A stretch of DNA of 64,000 nucleotides, from positions 512,324 to 576,323 of the forward strand of contig NW_004797449.1 of the NCBI RefSeq assembly GCF_000002075.1, given 5' to 3'. Made by a program: the position numbers and the translations under genes. This document shows, in pieces, positions 25,981-26,660 of the stretch (position 1 is its first letter; each line of letters opens with the position of its first letter). The notes beneath the pieces are model-generated. The model had not been told where the DNA came from. It was given only the letters and a program-made list of their open reading frames with translations, and ran no database searches. The DNA comes from Aplysia californica (Eukaryota).

Positions 25981-26527
25981 ACCACCTTGATGGGATTGCT
26001 AAATACCTCTTTGAGCTGTGTGTACATTGTGTGTGTGCATGTATGTGTGTATATGTGTATGTGTATCCAGCACTCACCTTGATGGGGTTACGAAACACCC
26101 CCATGAGCAGAGCCAGATGTTTCCCATCACTGTGTATTTGTACATGTGTGTGTTTGTGAGTGAGTGCATGTATTTGTAAATGTATATATGGGTGTGTGTG
26201 AGTGTGCGTGTGTGTAGTACCAGCACTCACCTTGATGAATTTACTTAACACCTCCACGAATAGCAATAAATATTCACTGTGTGTGTGTGTGTATGCGCGC
26301 GCGCACGTGTGCGTATGTGAGTAGAACCAGCACCCACGTTGATAGGATTACTAAACACCTCCATGAGCAGCGCCTGATGTTTCCCCTCACTGTGTGTGTG
26401 TGAGTGAGTGTGTGAGTGAGTGAGTGTAAGCGTGCGCGCGCGTGTGCGTGCATATGTGAGTAGCGCCAGCACCCACCTTGATAGGACTACTAAACATCTC
26501 CATGAGCAGCACCCGATGTTTCCCCTG

Positions 26528-26562
<35 letters not shown>

Positions 26563-26660
26563 GCACACGCGCGTGCGTGTGTATGTGAGTAAAACCAGCA
26601 CCTACCTTGACAGGATTACTAAACATCTCCATGAGCAGCGCCCGATGTTTCCCCTCACTT
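25981..26660 (-). repeat. Tandem array (about 90-155 bp period) of the MSH2 exon 14 3' end, donor and (CA)-rich spacer
   Basis: Exon-like ends at 26606 (real), 26477, 26338, 26231, 26078 and 25986, each followed by GT. Confidence 0.9.

Follow-up and report, generated by a model that had tools for sequence, protein, structure and literature searches.

A mirage-type tandem array of the exon 14 end and splice donor in the MSH2 gene of Aplysia californica

Intron 14 of the MSH2 gene of Aplysia californica opens with copy after copy of the preceding exon end and its splice donor, and the first copied donor lies in frame with the exon across a CA microsatellite. Does a mismatch-repair gene here tune its own splicing through a microsatellite, or is the array a neutral product of slippage within an intron? 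We addressed this question in a window of 64,000 nucleotides, the whole stretch of DNA analysed (assembly GCF_000002075.1, contig NW_004797449.1, positions 512,324 to 576,323 of the forward strand); all coordinates not preceded by a contig label are positions in this window.

Duplicated exon-intron boundaries in intron 14

The gene was located by an exact-match chain to the NCBI Msh2 protein of A. californica (P0002, 930 aa), residues 1-930 of which were placed exactly in 27 exon segments between 42248 and 11031, and by a phmmer match to human MSH2 (2o8b_A, 1345 bits). One conserved exon was a 100% match to P0002. Intron 14 is 896 nt long, the median intron of the gene being about 930 nt. The exon 14/exon 15 junction (K436/E437) aligned with T441/D442 of human MSH2, a position in the lever domain. 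The features of the gene and of the intron are as follows, D1 being the authentic donor and D2 to D6 the donors of copies 2 to 6, each with its distance from D1; a slash marks the end of the exon or of its copy.

11028..42248, minus strand: MSH2 gene, 27 coding exons
26606..26722, minus strand: exon 14, residues 398-436, ending at the authentic donor D1 (AAG/GTAGGT)
26531..26605, minus strand: spacer 1, 75 nt, composed of the donor tail, a (CA/CG) mix and an (AC)15 tract
26477..26530, minus strand: copy 2, 93% identity to the exon end; D2 (AAG/GTGGGT) at +129 nt
26338..26391, minus strand: copy 3, 93% identity; D3 (AAC/GTGGGT) at +268
26231..26278, minus strand: copy 4, shortened and most diverged; D4 (AAG/GTGAGT) at +375
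26078..26131, minus strand: copy 5, 83% identity; D5 (AAG/GTGAGT) at +528
25986..26015, minus strand: copy 6, final 30 nt only, 77% identity; D6 (AAG/GTGGTT) at +620, with unique intron next
25701..25847, minus strand: acceptor-side minisatellite, 31 bp x 4.8, with a unit spanning the intron 14/exon 15 boundary (TRF score 154)
25595..25709, minus strand: exon 15, residues 437-474, with the authentic acceptor at 25709

A sequence-only reading of this locus had described five further copies of the donor and of the 54 exonic nucleotides before it, separated by CA/CG-rich spacers, and had claimed that GT survives in each of them. Both statements proved correct. The template corresponds to 26659-26606, the repetition was far above chance (self-BLAST E values of 1e-52 to 1e-71; TRF score 531), and TRF called (TG)15.5 at 26530-26560, in the region of spacer 1. 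Copy 4 has a deletion, and its ungapped identity to the exon end was 57%. All five copies have GT, and four of the five retain AAG/GT. We considered a dispersed transposon as the source of the unit and discarded it, because the array unit, when compared with the A. californica genome in a DNA search that skips simple repeats, matched this locus alone.

An assembly artefact could be suspected from the N stretches that occur elsewhere in the window, and we regard it as extremely improbable. Divergence among the copies amounts to 7-40% and is nested, which is not the picture left by collapsed or expanded reads. Furthermore, when words were sampled from 25500-27000, runs X1 and X2, two samples of one study, contained fractions of 0.84 and 0.83 of them, as compared with about 0.55 calculated for words lying wholly outside the array, with the proviso that the run with the largest share may itself derive from the source sample. 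The nested divergence and word shares exceeding this value together argue against misassembly.

We found that the acceptor of the same intron has been copied in tandem as well, an addition that the earlier reading had overlooked. AG is present before 25801, 25771 and 25740 and absent before 25830, so that it is kept in three of the four copies. The upstream acceptor copies at +31, +62 and +92 nt all shift the frame and run into stops. The donor and acceptor arrays together make up about 770 of the 896 nt of intron 14 as duplicated boundary sequence.

Splice sites in use, reading frame and donor strength

Evidence on splice-site use came from the contig set X4 and from three runs of raw poly(A) reads, all aligned to 25000-26020 on the acceptor side. 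X4 was taken to be RNA by guess, and a spliced joint, 25180-25595, is present in it. A contig of 3426 nt from this set (word depth 167.5) was ungapped over 25595-25711 and spliced on to 25180, and beyond the acceptor 25709 its loose end was identical to the real end of exon 14, including the G at -6 that is absent from every copy. Since this contig joins the end of exon 14 to 25709, D1 and the acceptor 25709 are used, as seen in a single informative RNA contig set. The contig takes the final AG although one copied AG sits 31 nt ahead of the real site. The X4 depth over exon 15 was exactly that of this contig; among the X4 pieces listed, from a contig set in which rare variants are lost, nothing aligned to 25735-26020 and no junction from an alternative donor was seen. 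The annotated protein P0002 agrees with splicing from D1 to 25709. The raw poly(A) runs X21-X23 gave about 0, 1 and 1 reads for exon 15, too few to be informative. None of the listed runs that share words with the region is recorded as RNA. Runs X5-X17, guessed to be RNA, showed word shares of 0.08-0.13, close to the value of about 0.12 calculated for exon-only content, and were not counted as evidence. Poly(A) reads at 25034-25067 were rejected as MSH2 signal, as they derive from a repeat elsewhere. A 43-bp tandem duplication lies at 25022-25106, just inside intron 16, and belongs to a dispersed repeat that is abundant in the poly(A) reads of other loci.

D2 had been reported to lie exactly 129 nt downstream of D1, in frame and free of stops from exon 14, and we confirmed this. 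Its use would indeed add 43 aa; the description of this insert as rich in His and Thr holds for the 25 residues of the spacer only, the remaining 18 being a near-copy of the exon end. The further claim, that the length of (CA)n sets the frame of the later donors, was true for D2 but not for D3-D6. When the length of (AC)15 was changed in silico, the D2 frame was open at 5 of 13 lengths, that is, at every third, and was closed by a change of one or two units in either direction. By contrast, the frame of exon 14 is closed by a TGA at 26389-26387, within copy 3, and as this TGA precedes D3-D6, all of them carry a premature stop in this allele, whatever their offset modulo 3. The dependence of the D2 frame on the CA tract length is thus correct arithmetic yet generic; one random offset in three would be in frame, and no stop codon occurs within CA repeats.

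Duplex energies computed with the U1 5' end of this genome were -11.4 kcal/mol for D1, -11.0 for D2, -6.1 for D3, -11.8 for both D4 and D5, and -5.9 for D6. The better U1 match that had been attributed to D4 and D5 therefore exists in terms of energy (-11.8 vs -11.4 kcal/mol) and of bit score (11.6 for GTGAGT vs 9.7 for GTAGGT, with a matrix built from the other 25 MSH2 donors), but it is marginal, and the pair counts tie, with 7 Watson-Crick and 2 wobble pairs each for D1, D4 and D5. Among the 26 MSH2 donors a single one forms a stronger U1 duplex than D1, and 8 of the 26 introns of the gene contain unused donor-like motifs that pair at -9 kcal/mol or better.

All four changes that set copy 2 apart from the exon end are non-synonymous (P = 0.35 under neutrality). 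When the copies were pooled, 35 distinct variants were counted, 7 of them synonymous, as compared with an expected fraction of 0.20-0.26; the count is inflated by the misalignment of copy 4 that results from its deletion. There was no synonymous excess in the copies, and protein-level selection was not detected in this codon comparison with the exon end. The probability that 5/5 copies keep GT under neutral decay was about 0.10, before allowing for ascertainment.

These results bear on the possibility that weak selection keeps the copies as splicing elements that are themselves left uncut, namely as decoy or backup U1 sites or as a CA enhancer defining exon 14. The survival of GT in 5/5 copies and of AAG/GT in 4/5, the pairing of three copies with U1 at -11 kcal/mol or better, and the apparent movement of D1 from GTGAGT through GTGGGT to GTAGGT as the array grew would be consistent with such a role. 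However, the retention of GT, at P of about 0.10 before ascertainment, is not significant, arrays elsewhere in the genome also mostly keep GT, D1 is already the second strongest donor of the gene, and the pairing of D3 and D6 has weakened to about -6 kcal/mol. We consider this role unlikely.

A more far-reaching hypothesis is that D2 is used to a meaningful extent and that the length of (AC)15 determines whether the gene yields an MSH2 with 43 extra residues or an NMD substrate, so that slippage within this intron would feed into the output of mismatch repair. The reading frame runs open to D2, a gain or loss of one or two (AC) units closes it, and D2 pairs with U1 at -11.0 kcal/mol. In human 6-16 and CBS, splicing does make use of the closest pseudo-donors (PMC1557585). 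In addition, the copied peptide begins at S419, in a loop (419-423) that joins helices 396-418 and 424-452 in the AlphaFold model. The mean pLDDT of this model was 64.5, poor overall, and residues 390-460 alone were relied on (local pLDDT about 90). Judging from the model, copy 2 may complete the second helix and the rest of the insert may loop out, giving a D2 product that may be foldable.

On the other hand, D1 was the sole donor seen in the one RNA contig set, and all changes in copy 2 were non-synonymous. No such protein was on record: a search among longer proteins with exon 14 plus the 43-aa extension gave 7 matches, each to the exon part only (48% coverage), and the cluster of P0002 consists of one member and lacks the +43-aa form. 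A single intronic tract per allele would provide a three-state switch rather than graded feedback. A like layout occurs in a myosin exon, and since about 4% of the exons sampled carry arrays, one would be expected in MSH2 by chance, as described below. We therefore regard a microsatellite-tuned control of this kind as very unlikely, and its most specific form, in which D2 is used in an MSH2-expressing tissue and slippage of (AC)15 flips the product between a foldable +43-aa MSH2 and an NMD target, as slightly less likely again. If it were true, a mismatch-repair gene would read out the instability of its own microsatellite, a self-referential control that would be surprising. Neither the splicing/NMD rheostat nor the alternative donor array suggested in the sequence-only reading gained support, the RNA contig using D1 and the +43-aa protein being absent from the 7 matches.

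Boundary-spanning arrays in this genome and in other animals

To obtain a base rate, 191 of the 212 Pfam matches to myosin, kinesin and AMP-binding domains in the same genome were surveyed for local copies within 1.2 kb; the 21 left out were 6 long intronless AMP-binding matches and 15 for which DNA was not retrieved. Same-strand local copies were found in 12 of 191 exon pieces, as compared with none of 191 on the opposite strand. Nine matches, representing eight distinct exons (C1025:220988 and C596:328395 being counted as a single exon), were donor-spanning and one was acceptor-spanning; the other two were rejected as boundary arrays, C596:321080 being intron-only and C479:23111 an internal fragment. 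The donor-spanning rate was thus 8/190 distinct exon matches, or about 4% (95% interval 1.8-8.1%), a rough figure given that the sample consists of two large families and that the match ends are approximate. At the sampled rate, a gene with 26 donors would have a probability of about 0.67 of holding at least one donor-spanning array, and one such intron in MSH2 is therefore expected by chance. Donor sides were affected more often than acceptor sides (8/167 vs 1/151 assessable ends; Fisher p = 0.04, small sample), a bias to be expected if an upstream-first rule of donor choice renders donor copies harmless.

The other arrays of the survey mostly retain GT. At C479:18440-18700, a myosin exon is followed within 1.2 kb by 23 copies of an exon-end/donor unit of about 30 bp, 20 of them with GT. 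At C1014:6411-6542, the end and donor of a kinesin exon recur nine times after it, each time with GT and with (GGGA)n as the spacer. The myosin exon that occurs twice in the assembly (C1025:220988 and C596:328395) has a second donor beyond a (TG)n spacer; in one copy this donor is at +276, open and in frame, and in the other at +274, with a frameshift, a difference of one (TG) unit. This case reproduces a microsatellite-set donor frame in a gene unrelated to repair. The survey suggests that donor-spanning arrays are frequent in this genome, which would thus offer many natural examples on which to study how an invertebrate chooses its 5' splice sites.

Arrays of this type have been described as 'mirages' in amphioxus. 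They are tandem duplications across an exon-intron boundary in Adh3 and the globin genes BflGb6 and BflGb9, those of the globins having 3-6 units of 150-160 bp with 81-100% identity; either the 5' or the 3' boundary is affected, GT/AG is often kept and regular splicing is undisturbed (PMC3087553). The MSH2 array shares the head-to-tail arrangement of boundary-spanning repeats with mostly conserved splice signals. Three of the four features that define mirages were observed here: the first of six units spans the exon 14 end and the donor, and likewise at the acceptor; the intronic copies keep their signals (GT 5/5, acceptor AG 3/4); and splicing at the authentic sites predominates, as seen in one RNA contig (depth 167.5, D1 to 25709). 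The fourth is polymorphism of copy number or somatic instability; the sampled-word shares among six read sets were 0.53-0.84, a spread that may reflect either alleles or coverage. In contrast to the amphioxus mirages, the MSH2 array is found in a gastropod, has units of 92-153 bp padded by a CA microsatellite, and duplicates both ends of one intron; it also shows a polar ladder of divergence, whereas concerted evolution was reported for the BflGb6 mirage (PMC3087553). A literature search, not exhaustive, yielded no report on this locus or on mollusc mirages, and no paper on an intronic CA repeat of MSH2 with alternative splicing at this locus. The MSH2 array is an ordinary member of the mirage-type class already described, in a further phylum.

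A closely related arrangement is the 37-bp VNTR in IVS7 of human F7, in which the authentic donor precedes its copies and the most upstream donor is used exclusively, beating stronger and in-frame downstream sites; donor-spanning minisatellites are likewise described in human 6-16, CBS IVS13, LMNB2 and PDGF (PMC1557585). As in F7, the authentic MSH2 donor stands ahead of its copies and only the most upstream donor was seen to be used. The F7 unit has four exonic bases and identical donors, whereas in MSH2 the exonic part amounts to 54 bases, the donors have diverged and microsatellites separate the copies. Unlike 6-16 and CBS, for which that source reports use of nearby pseudo-donors, MSH2 showed none in the one RNA contig set.

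In human and mouse, hnRNP L keeps cryptic exons and extended forms of exons repressed where CA repeats lie near the donor (PMC5959245). The use of D2-D6 would similarly make CA repeats exonic, about 55-90 nt from the 5' site. The repression described there was shown in human and mouse, whereas Aplysia is known only to have an hnRNP L-like gene, which is present in its genome at C555.

Preferred reading and origin of the array

We consider it highly probable that the locus is a mirage-type tandem duplication of the exon end and donor, in which the first donor is spliced in the observed transcript and the copies, likely neutral, are normally ignored. A neutral slippage product had been the fallback of the earlier reading, and it is this proposal that the base rate, the lack of coding selection and D1 as the observed donor support. 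Under such neutral copying, D1 would win as the most upstream of consecutive donors, and any use of D2-D6 would bring the CA repeats into the exon close to the splice site, the setting in which hnRNP L acts as a repressor; that upstream-first choice and hnRNP L repression explain the choice of D1 in a mollusc is inferred by analogy with the human data. Leakage to D3-D6 would meet a stop and is predicted to lead to NMD, and leakage to D2 would yield a rare +43-aa protein. The neutral reading has RNA support from a single contig set, in which rare variants would be lost; as a counterpoint to exclusive use of D1, D2 nearly equals it in strength (-11.0 vs -11.4 kcal/mol), and some use of D2 is plausible by analogy with the nearest pseudo-donors of human 6-16 and CBS (PMC1557585).

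The copies differ from one another in nested diagnostic columns. Positions -6 and +3 set unit 1, the exon with D1, apart from units 2-6, position -21 separates units 1 and 2 from 3-6, and position -7 separates units 1-3 from 4-6. At +3, D1 has A and all copies have G. The older copies encode EVF...PIK, as does the closest relative P0068 (80% identical), and the exon today encodes EMF...PVK. This ladder of shared substitutions likely records a step-wise duplication from the exon, and the series of copies is likely to retain former sequences of the exon (V430M, then I435V) and its donor. Units would have arisen singly beside the exon, by slippage or unequal crossing-over, with the older units pushed into the intron and the CA tract probably assisting duplication. 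Each copy would have frozen the exon state of its time, in a process spread over a long period. The donor would have passed from GTGAGT through GTGGGT to GTAGGT, the final step, which would restore a U1 pair, coming after copy 2. This last step may be due to chance or to weak selection against D2, and the A at +3 of D1 could reflect selection to outcompete D2.

Other repeats were noted in the window. Three copies of an interspersed repeat of about 500 bp, with 95-97% identity, lie at 22810-23329, 35342-35865 and 51251-51728; two of the three are within MSH2 introns, each with strong unused donor-like motifs. Another interspersed repeat, of about 170 bp, occurs in many MSH2 introns (15345-15503, 24147-24325, 29364-29535, 31622-31797 and others). 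An unrelated degenerate minisatellite with periods of about 50-106 bp occupies 46841-47241 and has no open frame across it.
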